The notes under the pieces were generated by a model. That model was not told the DNA's origin, did no database searches, and was given only the letters and a program-made list of their open reading frames with translations. A DNA stretch of 42,355 bases from a virus: the UHGV virus genome UHGV-0194685; one strand, written 5' to 3'. A program made the position numbers and the translations under genes. Below, one piece after another: positions 6,407 through 19,728 of the stretch (its first letter is position 1; each line of letters starts with the position of its first letter).

Positions 6407-8745
6407 TGAGTAATTACGAACGCATTCCCTCAGAACTCCGTGAATTAAATCAGTGGGGGATTTATAAGCGTGAGTGGGATGAGGATAGACAGAAATGGAA
6501 GAAAAAACCGCACAATCCTTTTAACGGAAAACTCGGTAGCAGTACAAACGAGGGCACATGGTCTGATTTTCAGACCGCCCTTGATGCTATCAATAAATTT
6601 AAAGCAGATGGATTGGCATTCTATTTCAAACCGCCATACATTGGGATTGATTTAGATGATATTCCTGACGATTTAGAACGGTATCTACAAGGTGATATCG
6701 AAAACAACTTAGTTTATGTGTTTATGAATTCAACTAAAACCTATTCGGAAATATCAATGTCAGGTAAGGGGATCCATATTATCGGAAAGGCTAAAATCCC
6801 TGGAGACCGTAGAAGAAAAAAGAATGTAGAAATGTACACAGATGGTCGATTTTTCGCTATCACTGGAAACTTTTTTGGTAATAACAACGAAGTGAATGAA
6901 GTTCCAAAAACTCAAATGGACTTTCTTTATAAGCGTTATTTAGAGAATGATAATGTGATTACTCACGATTTTTCAAAACCAAATTGGGATGACGGGAATG
7001 ATTTGTCAGTAGATGAAATTGTTCAAACTGCACTTAATTCATCTACAGGACGTCGATTCAAAATGTTTATGGATGGCGGTTGGGAAAAAGTCTATTCTAG
7101 CCAATCAGAGGCAGATTTAGCTTTTGCCAACGATTTAGCCTTCTGGACCGCTGGTGACTTTCAAAAGATGGACGAAATATTCCGAATGTCTGCAATGATG
7201 CGAGAAAAGTATGATCAGAAACGCGGAAAAACGACGTATGGAATCGGGATATTAAATAAAGCAATCTCAGAAAATACGAACCACTACACTGGTAAAAAAA
7301 CAGCAGATGATTACTTTTTATCGATACCAGGCATTACTACAGAAGAAAAAGAAAAGCCTTCAAGATTTTATTCTTATGACGATACTGGGAATTCTGAACG
7401 ATATCTTGATTTGTTTGGAACGTTAACCAAATACAGCTATGTCAATAAGTGTTGGTACTTCTACAACGGGAAGAATTGGGAACAAGACAATATCGGGGCG
7501 ATCCGTAAATGGGTAGATCAATCGATTGACGTTCTTAAAAATGAACCAGTTTCTGTTCCTAAAGATGCTACAGAAGATGAGAAAAAAGCGTACATGGAAG
7601 CGAAAGCAAAACACGTTAAACGATCTCGCAACAATGCTGGTAAAGAGGCAATGACGAGGGAGTTGAAACACAATGTAGCAGCATTGCCTGAAGAATTCGA
7701 TAGTGACGATATGCTTTTTAACACCCAAAACGGATATCTTGATTTATCAAATGGCATTTTAAATGATCATGATATTTCTAAAATGTTTACTCGGATTTCT
7801 AACGCTGAGTACACCGACAAAGATGAGTGTTCTCGTTGGGAATTGTTTCTAAATCAAATATTTGATGGGAATACAGAGTTAATCCGCTACATTCAAAAAG
7901 CAGTCGGCTATTCAATGACTGCATCAGTTAAAGAGCAAGTGATGTTTATTCTATTTGGAAATGGCCGAAATGGTAAATCTGTCTTTCTGGATATTATCGC
8001 AGAGATTATGGGAAGCTACGCAATGGGAATGCAAGCGTCGAGTTTAATGGTAAAACAGGGCAGCAGTAGCGGACACAATGAAGATATTGCCCGTTTAGAT
8101 GGTGCTCGCCTAGTCACCAGTAGTGAACCAAACGAAGGCGTCCGGTTAGATGAGGGATTGATCAAACAGCTAACTGGTGGCGACAAAGTATCCGCGAGCT
8201 TCAAAGGTGGTCATATGTTTGATTACAAACCGAAGTATAAAATTTGGCTGGCCACTAATCACAAACCAATTATTCGAGGAAATGATGACGGTATCTGGCG
8301 GCGGTTACCATTGATCCCTTTTACTGTACAGATACCGCTTGATAAAGTTGATAAAACTTTGAAAGAAAAATTAATGCGTGAATTACCCGGCATCATGAAT
8401 TGGGCCGTCGAGGGCTGTTTAGCGTGGCAGAGAGAGGGACTTAATCCTCCGGCAGACATTCAGAAAGCTACGATGGAATATCGTCAAGAAATGGACGTTA
8501 TTGGAAGCTTCATTGAACAATGTTGCGAAACAGGACCCGGATACGCTATCGGGGCAACGGAATTGTTCAAAGCCTATGATAAGTGGGCAAAAGAAATGAA
8601 CGAACACGGATTTACTCAAACGCAGTTTGGTAAAAAGATTTCGGATAAATATGAAAAAAGAAAAACAAAAATTGGAATGGTCTATAAAGGAGTAAGTATT
8701 AAGAAACAATTTAGAGAATTTGGCGTTAATGTTCCAGGACTCTAA
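6406..8745 (+). CDS. bifunctional primase-polymerase (Prim-Pol) fused to a P4/D5-type SF3 primase-helicase
   Basis: The N-terminus has Prim-Pol-like motifs. The C-terminus has the Walker A motif ILFGNGRNGKSVF, typical of the P4-family primase C-terminal domain. The gene is 779 aa and the origin lies immediately downstream. Confidence 0.85.
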   Translation: MSNYERIPSELRELNQWGIYKREWDEDRQKWKKKPHNPFNGKLGSSTNEGTWSDFQTALDAINKFKADGLAFYFKPPYIGIDLDDIPDDLERYLQGDIENNLVYVFMNSTKTYSEISMSGKGIHIIGKAKIPGDRRRKKNVEMYTDGRFFAITGNFFGNNNEVNEVPKTQMDFLYKRYLENDNVITHDFSKPNWDDGNDLSVDEIVQTALNSSTGRRFKMFMDGGWEKVYSSQSEADLAFANDLAFWTAGDFQKMDEIFRMSAMMREKYDQKRGKTTYGIGILNKAISENTNHYTGKKTADDYFLSIPGITTEEKEKPSRFYSYDDTGNSERYLDLFGTLTKYSYVNKCWYFYNGKNWEQDNIGAIRKWVDQSIDVLKNEPVSVPKDATEDEKKAYMEAKAKHVKRSRNNAGKEAMTRELKHNVAALPEEFDSDDMLFNTQNGYLDLSNGILNDHDISKMFTRISNAEYTDKDECSRWELFLNQIFDGNTELIRYIQKAVGYSMTASVKEQVMFILFGNGRNGKSVFLDIIAEIMGSYAMGMQASSLMVKQGSSSGHNEDIARLDGARLVTSSEPNEGVRLDEGLIKQLTGGDKVSASFKGGHMFDYKPKYKIWLATNHKPIIRGNDDGIWRRLPLIPFTVQIPLDKVDKTLKEKLMRELPGIMNWAVEGCLAWQREGLNPPADIQKATMEYRQEMDVIGSFIEQCCETGPGYAIGATELFKAYDKWAKEMNEHGFTQTQFGKKISDKYEKRKTKIGMVYKGVSIKKQFREFGVNVPGL

Positions 8746-8765
8746 ATACGAACAAATGTTAGGGT

Positions 8766-8785
8766 GTGAAACATTTTTGTTTCAC
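8766..8785. repeat. inverted repeat GTGAAACA-tttt-TGTTTCAC just after the primase stop
   Basis: Seen directly. It has no T-tract, so it is not a canonical terminator. The same GTGAAACAT half-site recurs twice downstream of cro. Confidence 0.4.
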
Positions 8786-8796
8786 TAGAACGTCAA

Positions 8797-9065
8797 GGTG
8801 CATAGTTGGTGAATGGTTGGTGCATAGTTTTTAACAAACCCTTCACCCAAATCAGCCTTAGAGTGACAAGGGATACAGAAGATTGGTGAATAGTATGCAT
8901 AGTTTTTCTATATAGTTAAATTTTAAAATAAATAATAAGAATATATAAAAATACAGAAGCAACCCAGAAAAACTATGCAACCATGCACCTTATGGCTTTT
9001 AGGGTTGATATAACAACGTTTTTGAGAAATCAAACTATGCACCTTTTACTCTAAACCATGCACCT
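8797..9065. repeat. putative origin of replication with iterons flanking an AT-rich block
   Basis: GGTGCATAGTT direct repeats lie at 8797, 8819 and 8896 (the last partial). An AT-rich block spans 8908-8960. Inverted copies AACTATGCA(A/C)C lie at 8971 and 9033, and CCATGCACC at 8981 and 9056. The region sits downstream of the primase gene, as in Sfi21-like phages. Confidence 0.6.
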
Positions 9066-9079
9066 CTAAAGGAGGGTCT

Positions 9080-9394
9080 ATGACAGCAGAAATCGACATC
9101 CAAAACGCAATCAGAAGAGAATTGCCAAAATACGGGCATTTTATTTATCGAGGTAATGTAGGAAAAGTAAAAACCGTGGACGGTCGATGGTTCGATACAG
9201 GACTGCCAAACGGATGGCCGGATTTGTTCGGTTGGACAAATGAAGGTAAGTTTTTTCTGATCGAAGTCAAAAACGAAAAAGGCAAACTCAGACCAGACCA
9301 AATAAAATTCGGTGAGTTTTTAAAGACGCAGCCGGTCCTATATGGGGTCGCAAGGTCTGTAGAGGACGCTTTGCGGATTGTTAATAAGAAATAA
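9080..9394 (+). CDS. VRR-NUC domain nuclease
   Basis: GWPDL...FFLIEVK motif characteristic of VRR-NUC. An AGGAGGG RBS is present. Confidence 0.8.
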   Translation: MTAEIDIQNAIRRELPKYGHFIYRGNVGKVKTVDGRWFDTGLPNGWPDLFGWTNEGKFFLIEVKNEKGKLRPDQIKFGEFLKTQPVLYGVARSVEDALRIVNKK

Positions 9395-9414
9395 AAATAT
9401 TGCAGGTGAAGAAA

Positions 9415-9657
9415 ATGAAAACAATTAATATTTTCGGCGAGTACATCGAAGGTGAAGAAGTAGAGTATACGGATCAGCCGTATAAAAATATCATCATTGT
9501 AGAAGACCACAAAGGCGACAAGCACGTCGTTCATCGTGACACTGTGGATGAAAAACATAAACGCACAAAGAGCCGTGCAGGAGTGAGATTTGATCTGCTT
9601 GCTTGTCAAGCAAACGGACGGAAAGGACCAATTAGAAAATGGAGGCGGATTGGTTGA
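9415..9657 (+). CDS. hypothetical protein (~80 aa)
   Basis: ATG inside the track ORF 9400..9657, with GGTGAAG upstream. Confidence 0.4.
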   Translation: MKTINIFGEYIEGEEVEYTDQPYKNIIIVEDHKGDKHVVHRDTVDEKHKRTKSRAGVRFDLLACQANGRKGPIRKWRRIG

Positions 9658-13202: not shown

Positions 13203-13223
13203 CGAAGCGATTGCATAGAAAAA
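13199..13223. repeat. direct repeat copy 2 (TTAACGAAGCGATTGCATAGAAAAA)
   Basis: Matches 12721-12745 with one indel. Confidence 0.5.
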
Positions 13224-13545
13224 GACCGCTGGGTTTAGGGTGACAGCGGTCAGTGAATTAGGCGTTAATCTAATTCAGAAAAAGAACTTTAGTCTAGTTT
13301 CCGCTAGACTAAAGCATTCTATCATAAAAAAGACCATTGGTTAAATCCAACGGTCTCTGAGCTAGTTGAAATATGCTTCAGATTAATGAAATCAACAAGG
13401 AAGAACCTAGCTCGTTTAAATTATATCACAAAAAAGGACTACCGCGGTATGATACGGCAGTCCATGAGCTAGGGAATGGGGAAGCTAATTAATCGGTAAG
13501 AAGCCTAGCTCGCGCACATATTTTGTCTTCTCAAAAGACAAATAT
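13224..13545. promoter_or_regulatory. hairpin-dense intergenic region with alternating GAGCTAG / CTAGCTC motifs
   Basis: Hairpins lie at 13224-13251 (8 bp), 13287-13314 (11 bp, perfect), 13331-13356, 13436-13463 and 13522-13542. The motif occurs as GAGCTAG at 13359 and 13466 and as its complement CTAGCTC at 13407 and 13505. Confidence 0.4.
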
Positions 13546-13602
13546 ATTTTAACAAGATAGCGTTTTCGAAATCAACCGCGAACGGTAGTAAGGAGGAAAA
13601 TA

Positions 13603-13992
13603 ATGATACCGAAGTTTAGAGCGTGGTGGATACAAGATGAAGTGATGACACACATTTACACATTGGAGTTCTTGCAGGGTGGCATCAGGGTATCTGACGG
13701 ATGTTGGCACGAGAAATTTTTAGGTGATGAAGTCATTCTCATGCAATCAACAGGCCTCAAAGACAAGAACGGCGTTGAGATTTTTGAGGGGGATATAGTT
13801 AATTATGACGATGGAGAGTTTAGTTATATTGGCTCTGTAAAAAAAGACTATTATCAGTTCTATATTAATGGCATAGAACCAGTTGATAGTTATGATTTTA
13901 TTGACGTTTCAAATACTTTTGATGGCACAACTTCATTAACTATTTTAGGCAACATCTACGAAGATAAAGAATTGTTGGAGGCGATAGAATGA
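13603..13992 (+). CDS. YopX-family protein (paralog 2)
   Basis: The 5' end (about 34 nt) and the 3' ACTATTTTAGGCAACATCTACGAA are identical at nucleotide level to paralog 1, while the middle is divergent. An AGGAGG RBS is present. Confidence 0.7.
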   Translation: MIPKFRAWWIQDEVMTHIYTLEFLQGGIRVSDGCWHEKFLGDEVILMQSTGLKDKNGVEIFEGDIVNYDDGEFSYIGSVKKDYYQFYINGIEPVDSYDFIDVSNTFDGTTSLTILGNIYEDKELLEAIE

Positions 13993-14553: not shown

Positions 14554-14730
14554 ATGGATATCGTCAAAATGTTTTTTGAAGTTATGGACCACGTTTTAAG
14601 TATTATTTGGGATTTACTATTACTTAATTGGCTTATGTACGGTGGAAAATGGATAATTGGTGAAAAGTATCTCGAATTAACAATTCCTCCAATGTTGAAA
14701 AAAAGTAAAAGGGCCTATAAGGGAGATTAG
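14554..14730 (+). CDS. small hydrophobic protein (58 aa)
   Basis: An AAGGAGG RBS lies 8 nt upstream. It is below the ORF-track cutoff. Confidence 0.35.
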   Translation: MDIVKMFFEVMDHVLSIIWDLLLLNWLMYGGKWIIGEKYLELTIPPMLKKSKRAYKGD

Positions 14731-14867
14731 AATTAATTTCATGCATCACAGAAATGCATAAGGCACAACATATTGTATGCGAAAATGAGTTCCCACGATA
14801 TATTGTGGATAAACCTGTTAATATGTGCATAACAAAATGTAAATGTTGATTGAGTGGGGGATAAGCA

Positions 14868-15284
14868 GTGTCAGAATTAACTAAAACTAAGTTAGCGGAT
14901 TTGGAAGAGGATTTCCGATCATACAAAAAAATACCGAGCAAAATAGCCGAGGCATTAGTTGCTAGGGAATGGAAGCCCGAAGATACTAACTCTTGGATCA
15001 AAGGTAGTCAGACTCATACAGAAAAGGCTCTGACTGATCTAATAAAGAGAGAAGACAATAAGAGTTATCTATATTATTCAAAACTGTACATGGACATTTC
15101 AAAGGCTTATGCGAGCCTTAGCTCAGAGCTGAAAGAGATTGTAGACAAATATTTGTGGGGGGAGCTAAGCTATCTCGAGTGGCGCGAAATTGCTGAATAT
15201 GAACACTGTTCTAAAACAGCAGTATATAAAAAGCGATTTAAAATTTTAGAGAGTTTAGCAATCCAGCAAGGAAAAGTGTTCTAA
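14868..15284 (+). CDS. ArpU-family late transcription regulator
   Basis: The ~138-aa size, the C-terminal WGE/YLEWREIAE-type region and the position just upstream of the packaging module match ArpU/Alt-type activators. The start is a GTG. Confidence 0.65.
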   Translation: MSELTKTKLADLEEDFRSYKKIPSKIAEALVAREWKPEDTNSWIKGSQTHTEKALTDLIKREDNKSYLYYSKLYMDISKAYASLSSELKEIVDKYLWGELSYLEWREIAEYEHCSKTAVYKKRFKILESLAIQQGKVF

Positions 15285-15704
15285 AACGTGTGGTAGACCA
15301 CCCTGTCAATGCCCTAAAATAGTATTATCAGAGAGTTTTAAATAATCCATCAAGCAGACGACTCAAATTAACTTTATTGGCATGAAGTTTCTCCTTATAC
15401 CTCTTAACATACAAACGTCTAGCTTGGTGGATTTAATGGCGGCACACAAAAAATAAAAGAAGAGGATGTGAAGAAACACTCCTCAACTTTAAAGTTCACG
15501 TGCCGCCTTTATGTCACTGTGGCGGAAAGGCCATCAGATCAGTTGCAACGCTGACAGTGACTTAGACGAAAGGTAGCTTAAATATTAACCACATCAACAT
15601 CGTCAGCGAGTTGATAAAGGTAACTAGCAGACTCTAGGATTTAAGCCAGTCTTACCGATTAGTCTATTATAGTAGCAAGCTTACTGGAGGTAGCTCCTCC
15701 GAGT

Positions 15705-15771
15705 TGGCGTGTAGCTCATTTGGTAGAGCGCCTTAATCAGGAGGTCGCCGGTTCGATCCCGGTCACGTCAA
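15705..15771 (+). tRNA. tRNA-like element (67 nt) with acceptor, D and T arms but only a 2-bp anticodon stem
   Basis: Hand fold. The acceptor stem is TGGCGTG/CACGTCA with one G-T pair. The D arm is GCTC-ATTTGGTA-GAGC. The T arm is GCCGG-TTCGATC-CCGGT. Between them is CC-TTAATCA-GG instead of a 5-bp anticodon stem. There is no CCA, and the first nucleotide is T. It is probably not a functional canonical tRNA. Confidence 0.4.
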
Positions 15772-16268
15772 TATAGAATCTACGGAAACAATCAATCATC
15801 TCGGATGCCGATTGATTGGCTGCATTTACCAGCGTGCTGGAACTCAGTTAAAAGGCATAGAATACTATCTCAGACGTGAGACGCTCTCAGTTGTAGGTTA
15901 GGAGAGGAACATTAAGTTGGATTTGCTAGGAACACGGCAAGTTGCCATACGCAGGCTTTGTGAGCGGTCTATGAGCAGATACATCAATGCAATCATAGTT
16001 AAATGAGTTTGCTTTGATCAGGGGCGGTATTCTGATCCAGTGTTCAACATCGGCTATCTCGTCATAGCCCTAACGAAGCAACCGAGCATTCCTATCTGCC
16101 GGATACGGATAAACAGTGGGTTCCATAATGGAGTAGGTTGCTTAATTTAATGTCAATGCTCTCATTCCTGTATAGGCAGATATGTTCTGAGGTGAGAGCT
16201 TTAATACATACCAGTACCGCAAACGCCTCTTAACAATGCGGACCACTTGCGGTCGTAATACATAATCA

Positions 16269-16299
16269 AGATCACTCGTTTGAGTGGTCTTTTTATTTT
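16269..16299 (+). terminator. Rho-independent terminator
   Basis: AGATCACTC-gttt-GAGTGGTCT stem (9 bp, one G-T pair) followed by TTTTTATTTT. Confidence 0.6.
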
Positions 16300-16366
16300 A
16301 ACCTTATCGTCCAATCTGCACGATGGGGTTACTGCTAATAAGGTCATCGAAGAAAGGACTGATCCA

Positions 16367-16571
16367 AATGAGAAACCACTGGTACATTTCATTGGCGGGT
16401 AACTATCCGCAGCGCGCAATGTCAGCGCAGATAGCAAAGCGTTATACCATTGTTGAGCTGACGGACGAAGCGACACCGAATGAGATTGATCAGTACAAGT
16501 TGGTTCTCGTTGGTATCGGTTGGTTTAATGACAAACACATTCAAGAGAATATAAAGAGGTGGTTAAGGTGA
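16367..16571 (+). CDS. possible small ORF (67 aa) downstream of the ncRNA terminator
   Basis: ATG with GAAAGGA upstream, inside the track ORF 16323..16571. Low confidence; this could be non-coding. Confidence 0.2.
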
Positions 16572-16755
16572 CATACTTTGAATACTTGCGGCAGTGCTTT
16601 AATCACGCTAAGACAAAGCTACCTGACAGCTACACTGTAGATGATGTAGCTATATTTGTATTGAAGACTTAGATTCATAGCTATCCTGATGGTAGCAGCA
16701 AAGAGCAGACGCTCGCATGGTTAAAGTTCTTTAAGTGGATTAAGGAGGAAGAGTA

Positions 16756-17286
16756 ATGTTTTGGAATAAAAAAGAAAATCCTTTTGTTGTTAGACAAGAC
16801 TTTAATTATCCGAAGGTGCTTATCAAAACGCCTCATAAAGATTTAGAAGGTTATATTGAAGAAGTTGATTTCGAATACTTAGATGAAAGAAGCAAGGTGT
16901 TTATAGTTCATGCAGAAAGAGAACACCCGATAACAAGAGAAAGAATAGGAACTGTGTTCGGAGTATCTATTAAAGAAGTAGAGGCGAACGATTGGTACAT
17001 GAAGATAACACATGATGGGGAAACGTTATACGAGACGGTAACTAAGAACACTGAACCTAACCTACTAGAAATCAAACTGAAGGATACTGATTCGGTCCCT
17101 GAAGTGTATTACAAAGGTGAGAGGTTGGATGAGCTGCCCAAAGCTTTGGTGGATATCTCGTATCATTACAGGACGACCGGAGAGTGGCCTGATGATTCAG
17201 CTAACGACATCAACATAGAATACTACTCAACATCGAATGATAAGTACCTCGATAAGAAGATCATTGGACACAAGCGGGACATGTAG
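16756..17286 (+). CDS. hypothetical protein (176 aa)
   Basis: ORF-track ORF with an AGGAGGAAGAG RBS. Its Arg codon usage (AGA/AGG) differs by eye from the early genes. Confidence 0.55.
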   Translation: MFWNKKENPFVVRQDFNYPKVLIKTPHKDLEGYIEEVDFEYLDERSKVFIVHAEREHPITRERIGTVFGVSIKEVEANDWYMKITHDGETLYETVTKNTEPNLLEIKLKDTDSVPEVYYKGERLDELPKALVDISYHYRTTGEWPDDSANDINIEYYSTSNDKYLDKKIIGHKRDM

Positions 17287-17598
17287 ATGATTGAAGTAAC
17301 AACTAAAGCAGACAGAGCTAAGTTCTATTCATCGAGCGAGTGGAAGCAGCTAAGGCAAGAAGTGCTGGAACGTGATCACTACGAGTGTCTGTGGTGTAAA
17401 GAAGAGGGTAAGGTTACAACTGTTAACGATTCTATCTTGGAAGTGGATCACATTAAAGAGCTTGAATATCATCCAGAATTTGCGACTGATATAGATAATC
17501 TAAGAACATTGTGCAAAGAATGCCACAACAAGCGGCATAGTCGTATGAATTATCGCGGCGCAGAACGTAAGAAAAAATTTGATGATGAATGGTGGTAG
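17287..17598 (+). CDS. HNH endonuclease (terminase-associated)
   Basis: HNH motifs CLWCKEEGK...EVDHI...LCKECHNKRH. It lies directly upstream of the small terminase, as in HK97-like cos phages. Confidence 0.85.
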   Translation: MIEVTTKADRAKFYSSSEWKQLRQEVLERDHYECLWCKEEGKVTTVNDSILEVDHIKELEYHPEFATDIDNLRTLCKECHNKRHSRMNYRGAERKKKFDDEWW

Positions 17599-17728
17599 GA
17601 AATCATACCCCCCGGTCGAAATATTTTGGCTAAAAATAAAAATTTTGGAAACCGGTGGATGGGTCAACTCCACAGATCCATTGATGATACGCGTATAACC
17701 CCCTCCCCAGAAGAAAGGAAGTGATTGG
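17599..17728. other. candidate cos / packaging-site region
   Basis: GC-rich motifs CATACCCCCCGGTCG and TAACCCCCTCCCC lie in an AT-rich 130-nt gap between the HNH and TerS genes. This is inference from position only. Confidence 0.25.
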
Positions 17729-18088
17729 ATGGCGGATTTAAAAATCAGGAATGAAAAGGTAGCAGCTGAGGAAAAACGATTGAATGAATTGTTTTTTGAT
17801 TTGGCTGACGATAAGAAAAAAGTTGTTTCTGGATTAGTAACTCAAGCGGCACGATTAAAAATATTACTAGACGAAATGTGGATTGATATTTCTGAAAAAG
17901 GAGATTATGAATTATTCTCTCAGTCAGAAAATCAGATTCCTTACGAACGGGAGCGGCCGGTGGCAAAACAATACAATGCACGAGATCAATCGTATCAGCG
18001 GATTGTCAAGCAGTTAACTGACTATTTGCCAGAAGAAAAACGAGATGCGGCTGCTTCTGCTGCGTTAGATGGTAGTGATCTTCTATGA
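17729..18088 (+). CDS. terS: terminase small subunit (P27-like)
   Basis: 119 aa, placed between the HNH and TerL genes. An AAGGAAG RBS is present. Confidence 0.7.
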   Translation: MADLKIRNEKVAAEEKRLNELFFDLADDKKKVVSGLVTQAARLKILLDEMWIDISEKGDYELFSQSENQIPYERERPVAKQYNARDQSYQRIVKQLTDYLPEEKRDAAASAALDGSDLL

Positions 18089-19728
18089 CGTTGCTACAAC
18101 CTTATTTTTTTGATGAATACGTAGATCTCTACGAACGCGGAGTAATCCCATTCAATAAAGAACGTATTCAATTAGTCGAGTATCTTAAAAAAGAAGTTCT
18201 AATCAGAGATGATATTTATTTTGATGATGAAATGATTCAAAAATTTATCCGATACGCTGAAAAGAATTTCTTCCCATTAGCTAAATATCAGAAATTTATA
18301 ACGCCTTTCATTTTCCTTTACAAAAAAGAAGATGATGAGGTGTTTTTTAATGAAATTTTGAACTCTATTGCTCGTGGTGGGGGGAAGAACGGCTTCATGT
18401 CTGCTAGGGATTCATTTTTTATTTCGCCTCTTTATGGCGTTCACAATTATGATGTGACAATTACTGCTAATTCTGAGAAACAAGGGAAAGTCAGTTTTAA
18501 AGAAGTATATGAAACTGTTCAGGCTAAACGATTAGAACAGCAATTTTATCTGACAAAAATGGCAATTACCAATCGAGTGACCAATTCGATTTTTAGTTAT
18601 CGGACCAACAACCCAAAAACAATGGACAGCGCGCGTGACGGCTGCCTTGAATTTGATGAAATACACATGTTCGAAAATTCAGATATCGTGGATATCCAAC
18701 GGAGCGGTTTAGGAAAAATTCAACATCCTCGCACCTTTTACAACGGGACGAATGGCCATGTGCGTGAAGGTTTCTATGACCGAATGTTAGAACGCGCACA
18801 GAAAATATTCACTGGTGAAAACAAGAATGACCGTTTGTTTCCATTTATTTGTAAACTCGACACGATCGAAGAGATGGAAAAACAGGAATTATGGTCTAAA
18901 GCGAATCCGATGTTCGAAGAAGATTCTCCTTACGCCAAACGCTTGTATCAAACTGTTATGGACGAATACCTAAAGTTAGAAGAAGAGCCGTCTGGTCGCC
19001 GGGAGTTTGTCGTCAAACGGATGAATTTTACCGAAGGCGATATGGAAACCGATATTACTACTCACGAAAAGTTAATGGCTACGGATCAGCCGATTGGTGA
19101 TTTAAAAGGAAAGTCTTGTGTTGCTGGATTTGACTATGCGGAGATTCGAGATTTTGCAAGCGTTGGCTTGTTGTTCAAACACGATGAGAAATTTATTTGG
19201 TTACAACATAGTTTTGCTCGAAAGGAATTTTTAGACACCTTTAAAATCAAGGCACCGATCAAAGAATGGGCAGATAAAGGAATATTTACAATCGTAGATG
19301 CTCCTTCAATTTCTCCTCAACTACTAATTGATTGGTTGAATGAAAAACGTGAATTGTATCAGATTGAAATGGTGTGTGCAGATGGTTATCGAATGGACCT
19401 GCTGCAACCGCTATTGGAAAAAGAAGGGTATAACTATGAATTTATTCGAAATATTCGTGGCGTGCAATCGAAAGTGGCGCCAATTATTGAAGATGGTTTT
19501 GCGAACGAAAAATTTATTTTTGGCGATGATCCATCGATGCGATGGTACACAAATAACAGCTATGCAAAAGTAGACAAATCAGGAAATAAAACATTCTTGA
19601 AAAAAGAACCAGTCCGAAGAAAGACAGATGGTTTTCATGCCTTCTTAGCGGCTTTATATAAACGAGAAGAAATTCAAGATGTTGATTTAGAAGGCTTTTT
19701 TGACATGATGGAAAATTGGGACTTTTAA
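18085..19728 (+). CDS. terL: terminase large subunit
   Basis: 547 aa with an ATPase motif region (ARGGGKNG) and a C-terminal nuclease-like acidic motif. An ATGA overlap couples it to terS. Confidence 0.9.
   Translation: MTLLQPYFFDEYVDLYERGVIPFNKERIQLVEYLKKEVLIRDDIYFDDEMIQKFIRYAEKNFFPLAKYQKFITPFIFLYKKEDDEVFFNEILNSIARGGGKNGFMSARDSFFISPLYGVHNYDVTITANSEKQGKVSFKEVYETVQAKRLEQQFYLTKMAITNRVTNSIFSYRTNNPKTMDSARDGCLEFDEIHMFENSDIVDIQRSGLGKIQHPRTFYNGTNGHVREGFYDRMLERAQKIFTGENKNDRLFPFICKLDTIEEMEKQELWSKANPMFEEDSPYAKRLYQTVMDEYLKLEEEPSGRREFVVKRMNFTEGDMETDITTHEKLMATDQPIGDLKGKSCVAGFDYAEIRDFASVGLLFKHDEKFIWLQHSFARKEFLDTFKIKAPIKEWADKGIFTIVDAPSISPQLLIDWLNEKRELYQIEMVCADGYRMDLLQPLLEKEGYNYEFIRNIRGVQSKVAPIIEDGFANEKFIFGDDPSMRWYTNNSYAKVDKSGNKTFLKKEPVRRKTDGFHAFLAALYKREEIQDVDLEGFFDMMENWDF

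Follow-up and report, generated by a model that had tools for sequence, protein, structure and literature searches.

A candidate tRNA-punctuated array of small structured RNAs, with an orphan abiF-type hairpin, ahead of the late genes of an Enterococcus-type temperate phage

We analysed the non-coding interval 15285–16300 of the virus genome UHGV-0194685, a stretch of 42,355 nucleotides (nt) hereafter called the window, which represents a temperate phage: it encodes an integrase and a CI-type repressor, besides a replication module. The reading we favour, with a probability of about one half, is that this interval specifies a tRNA-punctuated array of small structured RNAs, driven by a late promoter and including at least one decoy directed against the abortive-infection toxin AbiF. 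In this reading an Enterococcus-type temperate phage would open its late transcription unit with ~970 nt of non-coding sequence, transcription beginning at an activator-dependent promoter directly behind a gene of the RinA/ArpU family and ending at the intrinsic terminator 16268–16296. Two tRNA-like beads, TLS1 and TLS2, would act as punctuation, with RNase P processing the 5’ end of each and RNase Z the 3’ end, where no CCA is encoded; a stabilising effect on the RNA pieces is also possible. The transcript would in this way yield distinct small RNAs, as do phage tRNA arrays, which are evidently the source of the locus. One hairpin, 16216–16253, would act in trans as a decoy silencing a host AbiF/Abi_2 HEPN abortive-infection toxin in lytic growth, and partial read-through of the terminator would supply the packaging genes. 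The tRNA-like elements, the terminator and all the motifs described below lie on the plus strand, which argues for a strand-specific RNA.

The absence of any plus-strand open reading frame (ORF) of 60 amino acids or more, which a previous reading made from the letters of this DNA only (the sequence-only reading) had noticed, is borne out: the longest plus-strand ORF of the interval has 36 amino acids. When both strands are counted, 15285–16200 (916 nt) is the largest gap of the window without an ORF of this size; on the plus strand alone, the gap 15285–16322 ranks second. A hidden or decayed protein gene was rejected, because the ORF scan found no plus-strand ORF of at least 40 amino acids in the interval and the variation in the stems is compensatory, not codon-like; no formal coding-potential test stands behind this rejection. 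The enrichment in G+C announced for the whole interval holds for 15501–16000 (0.458) and 16001–16500 (0.444), most of the window being at ~0.35–0.40, but not for the first ~200 nt (0.37 in 15285–15500). Taken alone, folding energy gives a modest signal: the mean z-score in 150-nt windows is -0.96 inside the interval versus -0.29 outside (p = 0.03), strong values are found only at the 5’ hairpins (-4.1 and -6.6) and at the terminator (-5.8), and 15772–16010 folds no better than shuffled sequence. The decisive evidence, which makes us consider the region as more than a chance accumulation of stems, is its conservation with compensatory changes in homologues. The check for covarying stems that the sequence-only reading had recommended thus revealed such changes in several modules, and supports the existence of a structured and conserved non-coding RNA on the transcribed strand. 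We regard these changes as good evidence that the RNA stems matter, not as a proof of any particular tertiary fold; as the sequences are closely related, the independent covariation events are few.

Among sequenced phages, BLAST retrieved only pieces of the interval (220 nt and 143 nt), from few DNA relatives that are all Enterococcus phages. Since no close relative of the whole region exists there, the analysis was carried out module by module. Pattern scans of IMG/VR, GTDB genomes and metagenomes yielded ~85 related loci, all Enterococcus-type (these loci, like other viral contigs, are designated below by L numbers), and mosaic maps were drawn by BLAST and motif mapping over ~60 related loci. 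In the window the blocks are ordered M0, M1, TLS1, M2, TLS2, M3, C, D, F, abiF module and terminator. Among relatives the fate of one unit does not follow that of another: M0, M1, M2 together with TLS2, M3, C, F and the abiF module may each be kept, missing or replaced. TLS1 is directly joined to M3, with no M2 and TLS2, in L013 and in the Schiekvirus loci; L023 reads M0-M1-TLS1-M2-tRNA-D-terminator, without M3; L022 is devoid of C, and L009 consists of M3, a short spacer, D and the terminator. Within the mapped loci the window shares its abiF module with L060 only, and its module F with L022 only. M3, or D where M3 is missing, always begins directly after the 3’ end of a tRNA or tRNA-like element, and the optional 3’ modules of the relatives are bounded by a repeated TA(A/T)TACATA junction. 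Judged from these comparisons the interval is “beads on a string”, i.e. at least ten locally folding modules that are shuffled, swapped or lost independently, and not one fold.

The two pieces found in sequenced phages illustrate this mosaic. The stretch 15552–15771 is 88% identical to Enterococcus phage EH-TP1, upstream of and including a tRNA-Lys, and 15772–15914 is 85% identical to several Schiekvirus phages of ~150 kb, where it is unannotated. In these Schiekvirus loci (L002 2288–3260, which is Enterococcus phage EFP01, KY549443.1; L014, L016 and L020) the order is ROOL, TLS1, M3, D and terminator: TLS1 begins 13 nt past the end of the ROOL match, and the M3 homologue lies ~127 nt downstream of this true ROOL, inside a tRNA array. 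The M3 and D sequences of the temperate L003 group are nearly identical to those of Schiekvirus, which suggests that lytic and temperate phages exchanged RNA modules recently. A wider scan for M3 found it in 3 Enterococcus species and one metagenome-assembled genome; in metagenomes it gave 24 near-identical copies, which for that reason add little covariation power, and 4 chance matches.

Module M3 (15772–15914) is modelled as a pseudoknotted core placed directly after a tRNA-like 3’ end. Its helices are P0, formed by AATCTACG (15777–15784) and TGTAGGTT (15892–15899); P1 (15789–15797 with 15810–15818); P2, where CTG 15820–15822 pairs with CAG 15845–15847 and CCAG 15829–15832 with CTGG 15837–15840; P3 (15868–15872 with 15877–15881); and P4 (15884–15888 with 15902–15906). 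A candidate pseudoknot would join ATGCC 15805–15809 to GGCAT 15854–15858. Across 22 distinct sequences the proposed helices have 99.7% of their cells paired. In four pairs both partners change, as seen in CAATCAATC/GATTGATTG versus CAATTCATC/GATGAATTG and in TCTCA/TGAGA versus GCACA/TGTGC and GCGCA/TGCGC. None of 500 shuffles reached the covariation score, and in slid controls pairing falls to ~30%. Independently, RNAalifold recovered P0, P1 and P3, with the closing helix AACCTACG/TGTAGGTT. The folding energy of M3 is unremarkable (z = +0.2). The loop of P4, GUGUAGGUUAGG, may resemble a sequence of the 23S rRNA L1 stalk, a likeness that was set aside.

The closing helix and candidate pseudoknots of M3 are also what one would expect if the locus encoded a single large ornate RNA, i.e. 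a new class analogous to GOLLD and ROOL and perhaps multimeric, covering either the whole ~1 kb or the part from TLS1 to the terminator, with, as in GOLLD, a variable 5’ domain, an embedded tRNA and a conserved 3’ domain. The locus agrees with GOLLD and ROOL as published in its size, its prophage setting, its late-lytic position and the tRNA-like element that it contains, the TLS1-M3-D homologue of Schiekvirus lies directly 3’ of ROOL, and recurrent AACC...GTAGGTT elements could make contacts between domains. The mosaic nevertheless disfavours a single fold: each block, M3 included, is dispensable in some relative, the central part folds no better than shuffles, and no conserved long-range pairing between blocks was found. 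The sole candidate, TATCTGCC/GGCAGATA, is unsupported across relatives, since L013 and L004 keep the 5’ partner without the module carrying the 3’ partner; as strings of letters, this pair and all the other stems listed in the sequence-only reading are present where it had placed them. Furthermore no GOLLD or ROOL model matches the interval even at E≤10. We therefore consider a single ornate RNA as unlikely.

This absence of model match also bears on the GOLLD/ROOL-type identity first suggested for the region, which is not supported at the gathering score or at E≤10. The models of GOLLD, ROOL, HEARO and introns were run as had been recommended, and none matches 14600–16900 at E≤10 with permissive filters. 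GOLLD (RF01998) has no match at its gathering score over the whole window, ROOL (RF03087, gathering score 99.1 bits) has none in the window, and neither family matches the 6 related loci searched at E≤5. The ROOL test has power, because the same model scores 231–268 bits in L002, L014, L016, L020 and L125, which are Schiekvirus-type and other contigs, with 264 bits in one related phage. At gathering scores the only Rfam match of the whole window is a tRNA (48.5 bits, 15705–15771); the permissive search of 14600–16900 gave one other notable match, abiF (RF03085). Riboswitches, ribozymes, introns and HEARO were rejected, no Rfam family except tRNA reaching its threshold, and sub-threshold matches (E 5–10) to the SodC thermometer, SNORD112, IMES-5 and tfoR were treated as chance. 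Apart from the tRNA-like and abiF elements, none of the modules is in Rfam; the matching stretches of deposited phage genomes carry no annotation, and a literature search found no paper on this RNA or on a role of ROOL or GOLLD in defence. The analogy of context with GOLLD and ROOL is real; the assignment to either family is not supported.

The 5’ modules and those beyond M3 combine constant stems with variable content. M0 (15346–15431) is a long hairpin of CCATCAAGCAGACG paired with CGTCTAGCTTGGTGG (minimum free energy z = -4.1), 92–95% identical in L004, L009, L013, L022 and L023 and missing from the other relatives. M1 (15438–15507; z = -6.6) has an outer stem GGCGGCAC/GTGCCGCC around a GAGGA/TCCTC hairpin and a GTGAA/TTCAC stem; the outer stem undergoes a compensatory change to GACGGCAC/GTGCCGTC in L012, L055 and L060. 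M2 (15563–15704) ends in the hairpin GGAGG-TAGCT-CCTCC (15686–15700), 4 nt before TLS2, which is invariant and precedes the tRNA slot in 9 of 9 variants. Here too a compensatory change occurs, from ATCAAC/GTTGAT to ATCAG/CTGAT in L022; with TLS2, M2 forms an optional insert that is missing in L013, L008, L024 and L002.

Block C (15915–16075) is of variable length and contains the hairpins GATCAG/CTGATC (16016–16021 with 16032–16037) and GGCTAT/ATAGCC (16052–16057 with 16064–16069). It has homologues in L013, L008, the L024 group and L060, and is missing in L022, L009 and L002; its first hairpin corresponds to GAACAG/CTGTTC in L024 and to CTAGA/TCTAG in L008, around the conserved loop GACGGTATT. 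Block D (16076–16145; z = -2.35) is framed by GCAACC(GAG) 16078–16086 paired with (GTA)GGTTGC 16133–16141. The frame GCAACCGAG ... GTGTAGGTTGC is kept in nearly all loci around at least seven unrelated cargos of 25–75 nt; in the window the cargo is phage-specific and includes the hairpin CCG-GATA-CGG (16099–16108), whose CCG/CGG corresponds to CCA/TGG in L013, L004 and L022. Module F (16146–16210), 94.5% identical with that of L022, consists of the hairpin GCTCTCA/TGAGAGC (16158–16164 with 16193–16199) followed by the junction TAATACATA at 16202–16210. Only two places of the window, 16202–16210 and 16256–16264, carry TAATACATA without mismatch; they flank the abiF module, as a duplicated junction would. 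As a general repeated signal TAATACATA was rejected, since with one mismatch allowed it is no commoner than by chance.

Such variability could also be that of a functionless remnant, i.e. a phage tRNA gene cluster and its spacers in decay: both tRNA-like elements are defective, and the tRNA slot carries many different lesions among relatives. Decay alone hardly accounts for stems that are kept intact by compensatory changes, nor for an M3 conserved at ~85% between unrelated lytic (Herelleviridae) and temperate phages; the lesions spare the acceptor and T arms and not the anticodon arms, and compact phage genomes seldom retain 1 kb of junk, while this locus recurs in dozens of phages. We thus hold simple decay as quite improbable.

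The tRNA-like element predicted by the sequence-only reading was found again at 15705–15771, where TLS2 matches the Rfam tRNA model (RF00005) with 48.5 bits for a gathering score of 29. It derives from a tRNA-Lys(UUU), with acceptor, D and T arms intact and no encoded CCA. Compared with the intact tRNA-Lys(UUU) of EH-TP1, L003 and L009 it has lost 6 nt (TGACTT) in the anticodon stem and loop, so that 5 instead of 11 central positions are left and the third arm of its predicted cloverleaf is shortened. The arms of a cloverleaf are present, and the 5-bp stem and 7-nt loop presenting an anticodon are not. As ARAGORN calls no tRNA there and the anticodon arm is deleted, we describe TLS2 as tRNA-like and not as a tRNA gene. 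Its 7-bp acceptor UGGCGUG/CACGUCA, its T arm GCCGG-UUCGAUC-CCGGU, and a discriminator A followed by UAU compose the minihelix (acceptor and T arms, discriminator, no CCA) expected of a substrate for RNase P and RNase Z, which TLS2 could be. In relatives the same slot holds an intact tRNA-Lys(UUU), variants with anticodon UAU, UCA or UUA, or a form without anticodon arm, the acceptor and T arms always being kept and the T stem showing compensatory changes. ARAGORN calls an Ile(UAU), a ‘SeC’(UCA) and a suppressor-like tRNA with anticodon UUA in the slots of L011, L022 and L023; the slot thus carries anticodon-loop variants, among them possible nonsense suppressors.

TLS1 (15513–15562; z = -2.6) is a reduced tRNA-Leu-like frame, with an acceptor stem GTCACTGT/ACAGTGAC and a D-arm-like GGC-GGAAAG-GCC. 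In most relatives it has a 7-bp acceptor stem GTCACTG/CAGTGAC, a discriminator base without CCA, a class-II tRNA-Leu-like D arm GCG-GAAAGGGTAGA-CGC and a T arm GCAAGG-TTCGATT-CCTTGC. Over 22 distinct relatives, this frame undergoes compensatory changes in the acceptor and T stems, and 17–190 nt of unrelated cargo stand where the anticodon and variable arms would be. The T arm is gone from the TLS1 of the window, L004 and L023, which leaves an acceptor-like stem and two small hairpins; in the window TLS1 thus offers an acceptor stem only. From standard tRNA processing we infer that what preserves the TLS elements would be their use as sites for RNase P and RNase Z and as stabilising ends, not decoding.

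The abiF module (16216–16264) is a hairpin with an outer stem ACCGCAA/TTGCGGT, an inner stem CGC/GCG and the loop CUCUUAACAAU, followed by TAATACATA at 16256–16264. The model RF03085 matches 16217–16253 with 30.2 bits (gathering score 37; E = 0.008 in a 2.3-kb search), and its alignment leaves no position unmatched: the outer stem of 6–7 bp, the inner stem of 3 bp and the loop CUCU(C/U)AAC(G/A)AU are all present. The 24-nt core ACGCCTCTTAACAATGCGGACCAC is identical in L159, L148 and L145, the last of which, with the same core sub-variant as the window, reaches 37.8 bits. In L159 an Abi_2 gene (PF07751, 2.7e-50) follows the copy after 42 nt; the hairpin of L151 likewise lies 35–42 nt upstream of Abi_2 (1e-53). 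A homologue in L060, whose outer stem is changed in a fully compensatory way, gives no Rfam abiF match at E≤5 in a 60-kb search. The hairpin of the window is an abiF-type RNA in all but Rfam score. No Abi_2 homologue exists anywhere in the window, which makes this hairpin an orphan; Abi_2 homologues occur on Enterococcus plasmids.

AbiF is held in check by its antitoxin, the abiF-motif RNA, which inactivates this HEPN toxin by direct binding, whether supplied in cis or in trans (PMC12373285; reviewed in PMC13064643). Phage PhiTE, for its part, carries a pseudo-ToxI, an RNA mimic of the type III antitoxin ToxI (PMC3475682). By analogy with pseudo-ToxI, the most economical reading of the orphan hairpin would be that of a decoy against host AbiF. 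A literature search found no paper on orphan abiF hairpins as anti-defence elements; a cyanophage paper lists an abiF Rfam match without interpretation (PMC9964418).

Orphan hairpins of this type are not restricted to the window. A scan of IMG/VR with the loop 15-mer GCCTCTTAACAATGC retrieved at least 120 viral contigs (L061–L180), nearly all with the same hairpin architecture and with outer stems of quite different sequence. Among the matches listed there are 69 distinct viral hairpins in which at least 6 of 7 positions pair in the register of the window (1.3% expected for random flanks), and whose inner pair 9–25 is C-G, A-U, U-A or G-C; many of the listed hairpins are recognised by the Rfam abiF model at 49–55 bits. 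An Abi_2-like ORF was found in the flanks of 2 of 120 contigs among the matches listed, a count that is rough since it was made with two Abi_2 seed proteins and limited flanks. Again among the matches listed, 23 hairpins lie within 100 nt of a tRNA, for 5.1 expected by random placement in the same loci; 34 lie within 500 nt, 32 of them on the strand of the tRNA, and nine end 4–7 nt before a tRNA 5’ end. The locus of the window looks like a tRNA-array-type RNA island that lost its decoding tRNAs.

Two of these contigs deserve mention for their neighbouring RNAs. On the minus strand of L125 (~7290–9480) a tRNA-Met, an abiF-type hairpin, a ROOL (231 bits) and further tRNAs follow each other on one strand, so that ROOL, abiF hairpins and tRNAs share arrays outside Enterococcus phages too. 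L148, where an abiF-type hairpin adjoins a tRNA-Thr, also has a type-P5 twister ribozyme at 9183–9237 (61.5 bits).

Upstream of the interval lies a gene of 138 amino acids (14868–15284), whose product has weak matches to phage transcriptional regulators (phrog_36 at 1.9e-9, and sigma-70 region-4-like matches) and scores 23.6 bits with RinA TIGR01636, under the cutoff of 31.9. Its attribution to the RinA/ArpU superfamily thus relies on weak matches only. Downstream, the HNH (17287–17598) and TerL (18085–19728) genes are confirmed; of the proposed location between a late activator and packaging genes, the second half is established and the first is backed by these weak matches. The direct repeats recognised by activators of the Ltr/ArpU/RinA type lie just past the activator gene itself and precede the late promoter (PMC3753634). 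At the corresponding place, 15285–15330 contains an inverted repeat after the stop codon of the regulator, then a -10-like TAAAAT (15315–15320), which stays the same in 6 related loci, whereas the inverted repeat before it covaries. This arrangement is that of the subgroup of the window; L024 and L003 have three direct repeats followed by TGATATTAT. This is probably the late promoter region, which would place the start of the RNA at ~15327–15337.

At the other end, the terminator that had been seen to close the interval is confirmed: AAGATCACTC-GTTT-GAGTGGTCTT followed by TTTTTATTTT (16268–16296), with a 10-bp stem (16268–16291) and a T run (z = -5.8). In most relatives the unit closes with this terminator, varied in its stem and preceded by TACATA(A/T)T(C/T)A(A/G). 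No promoter-like site was found between the terminator and the first late gene, and in L024 a ribosome-binding site lies within ~10 nt past the T run. For these reasons late transcripts most likely begin with this RNA, and expression of the late genes would need read-through. As an observation apart, weak matches to the Enterococcus small RNA Ref1C (29 bits for a gathering score of 90) are found in L004 (667–789) and L009 (1406–1523), just past the terminator of the unit and antisense to it; they include the hairpin GAGGGCTACTGTTTCCGCAATAGTCCTC, which has no counterpart in the window.

The position of the unit between a predicted late promoter and late genes, with a strong terminator, no promoter-like site behind it and, in L024, a ribosome-binding site abutting it, is also that of a cis-acting leader, in which attenuation, or an antitermination comparable to that of HK022 put RNA, would set terminator read-through and the timing of packaging genes. 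More terminator-like hairpins are present within the late region, which would fit such a control. On the other hand the same modules stand in the tRNA array of the lytic Schiekvirus, followed by more tRNAs and no late operon, and in other loci the unit stands alone behind a divergent gene; both settings argue against a purely cis-regulatory role. Besides, the genes past the terminator differ among loci, no alternative pairing with the 5’ strand of the terminator was seen, and the module content is too variable for one conserved switch. A leader acting only in cis appears to us improbable.

The proximity of the HNH and terminase genes evokes still another explanation, a DNA-level element such as a cos or pac packaging site, a replication origin, or protein-binding repeats, of which GTGTAGG boxes would be an example. 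Boxes of this kind recur in the promoter repeats of L024, in the P4 loop of M3 and in block D, and the cos region of sk1 was reported to protect against AbiF (PMC13064643). Covariation, the orientation of the tRNA-like elements, the terminator and the abiF hairpin are by contrast strand-specific features of RNA. Moreover we take the cos site of an HNH-type phage to lie between HNH and terS, i.e. at ~17600–17730. A DNA-level element is thus very improbable.

Returning to the array of small RNAs with its anti-AbiF decoy, several points weigh against it. The array, its processing and the decoy are predicted here from sequence. The TLS1 of this phage has no T arm and may then be no substrate for RNase P or RNase Z. 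The abiF hairpin reaches 30.2 bits for a threshold of 37, is single-copy and does not adjoin a tRNA-like element here. RCd22, an RNA of the AbiF system, requires both its motifs and its overall structure (PMC12373285), so a lone hairpin might bind the toxin weakly; and a decoy made only from a late promoter might come too late against abortive infection. The strong terminator placed before the late genes obliges the model to suppose a read-through. Only Enterococcus phages that are close to each other carry M3, hence few independent covariation events, and the orphan count relies on its two Abi_2 seeds and limited flanks.

The association of conserved frames with hypervariable cargo suggests further decoy or anti-defence roles. 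In a broader and tentative proposal, to which we give less credit than to the array itself, phage tRNA arrays and tRNA-less descendants like this locus might be RNA counter-defence islands: operons of small structured RNAs cut by host tRNA-processing enzymes, with ROOL and GOLLD possibly belonging to the same functional guild. Their cargo might comprise orphan mimics of the AbiF antitoxin, non-decoding tRNAs as decoys for anticodon nucleases, and hypervariable framed hairpins like those of TLS1 and D. If the reading were right, the locus would join phage tRNA arrays, ROOL and GOLLD, and RNA-based escape from abortive infection, which have hitherto been treated apart, and would explain why up to 1 kb of non-coding sequence is found at the head of the late operon in temperate Enterococcus phages. 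The orphan AbiF antitoxin hairpin offers a concrete and directly testable handle, and the reading points to natural tRNA scaffolds displaying variable RNA cargo.

Elsewhere in the window, a second ORF-free gap of 400 nt (13203–13602), upstream of the YopX gene, folds very stably (z about -5) and contains four ‘AAAAAG + hairpin’ units ~105 nt apart. These have no Rfam match and could be read as intrinsic terminators or small-RNA-like hairpins of the minus strand. Inside the YopX gene, 66 nt (13738–13803) are shared at 91% identity with Campylobacter phage CJLB-5, a curious DNA similarity across phyla.

Signals for processing that resemble tRNAs are found in the stable RNAs of the T4 tRNA cluster, in MALAT1/mascRNA and in mitochondrial transcripts. 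As in phage tRNA arrays and other cases of tRNA punctuation, non-decoding tRNA shapes stand in the window exactly at the boundaries of other RNAs, and the lack of an encoded CCA fits RNase Z; the differences are that TLS1 has here no T arm and that processing is predicted from sequence. GOLLD is a phage and prophage RNA of 0.7–1 kb, tRNA-associated and sometimes with an embedded tRNA, having a variable 5’ part and a conserved 3’ part (PMC12990946). The RNA of the window shares with it phage location, association with or embedding of a tRNA, a variable 5’ part, a more conserved 3’ part, and size; it differs by the absence of a model match, by parts that are individually dispensable and by showing no evident global fold. 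A temperate phage with a tRNA-like element inside the region is indeed the context of GOLLD, which speaks of context and not of family membership. ROOL sits in phage tRNA arrays, precedes the TLS1-M3-D-terminator homologue by 13 nt in Schiekvirus and, in L125, stands beside an abiF hairpin and tRNAs; in the window ROOL is absent, and TLS1 is preceded there by M0 and M1, hairpins unrelated to it. With the abiF motif (AbiFr, RCd22) of the AbiF type III toxin-antitoxin system, the hairpin of the window has in common the two-stem architecture and the loop, and it departs from it by being an orphan, single-copy, embedded in a longer non-coding RNA and scored at 30.2 bits versus 37. Compared with pseudo-ToxI, the toxin family is AbiF instead of ToxN, a single hairpin replaces tandem repeats, and the activity demonstrated for PhiTE is proposed by analogy for the hairpin of the window; what both have in common is a phage RNA that resembles a host type III Abi antitoxin in a phage devoid of the toxin gene.

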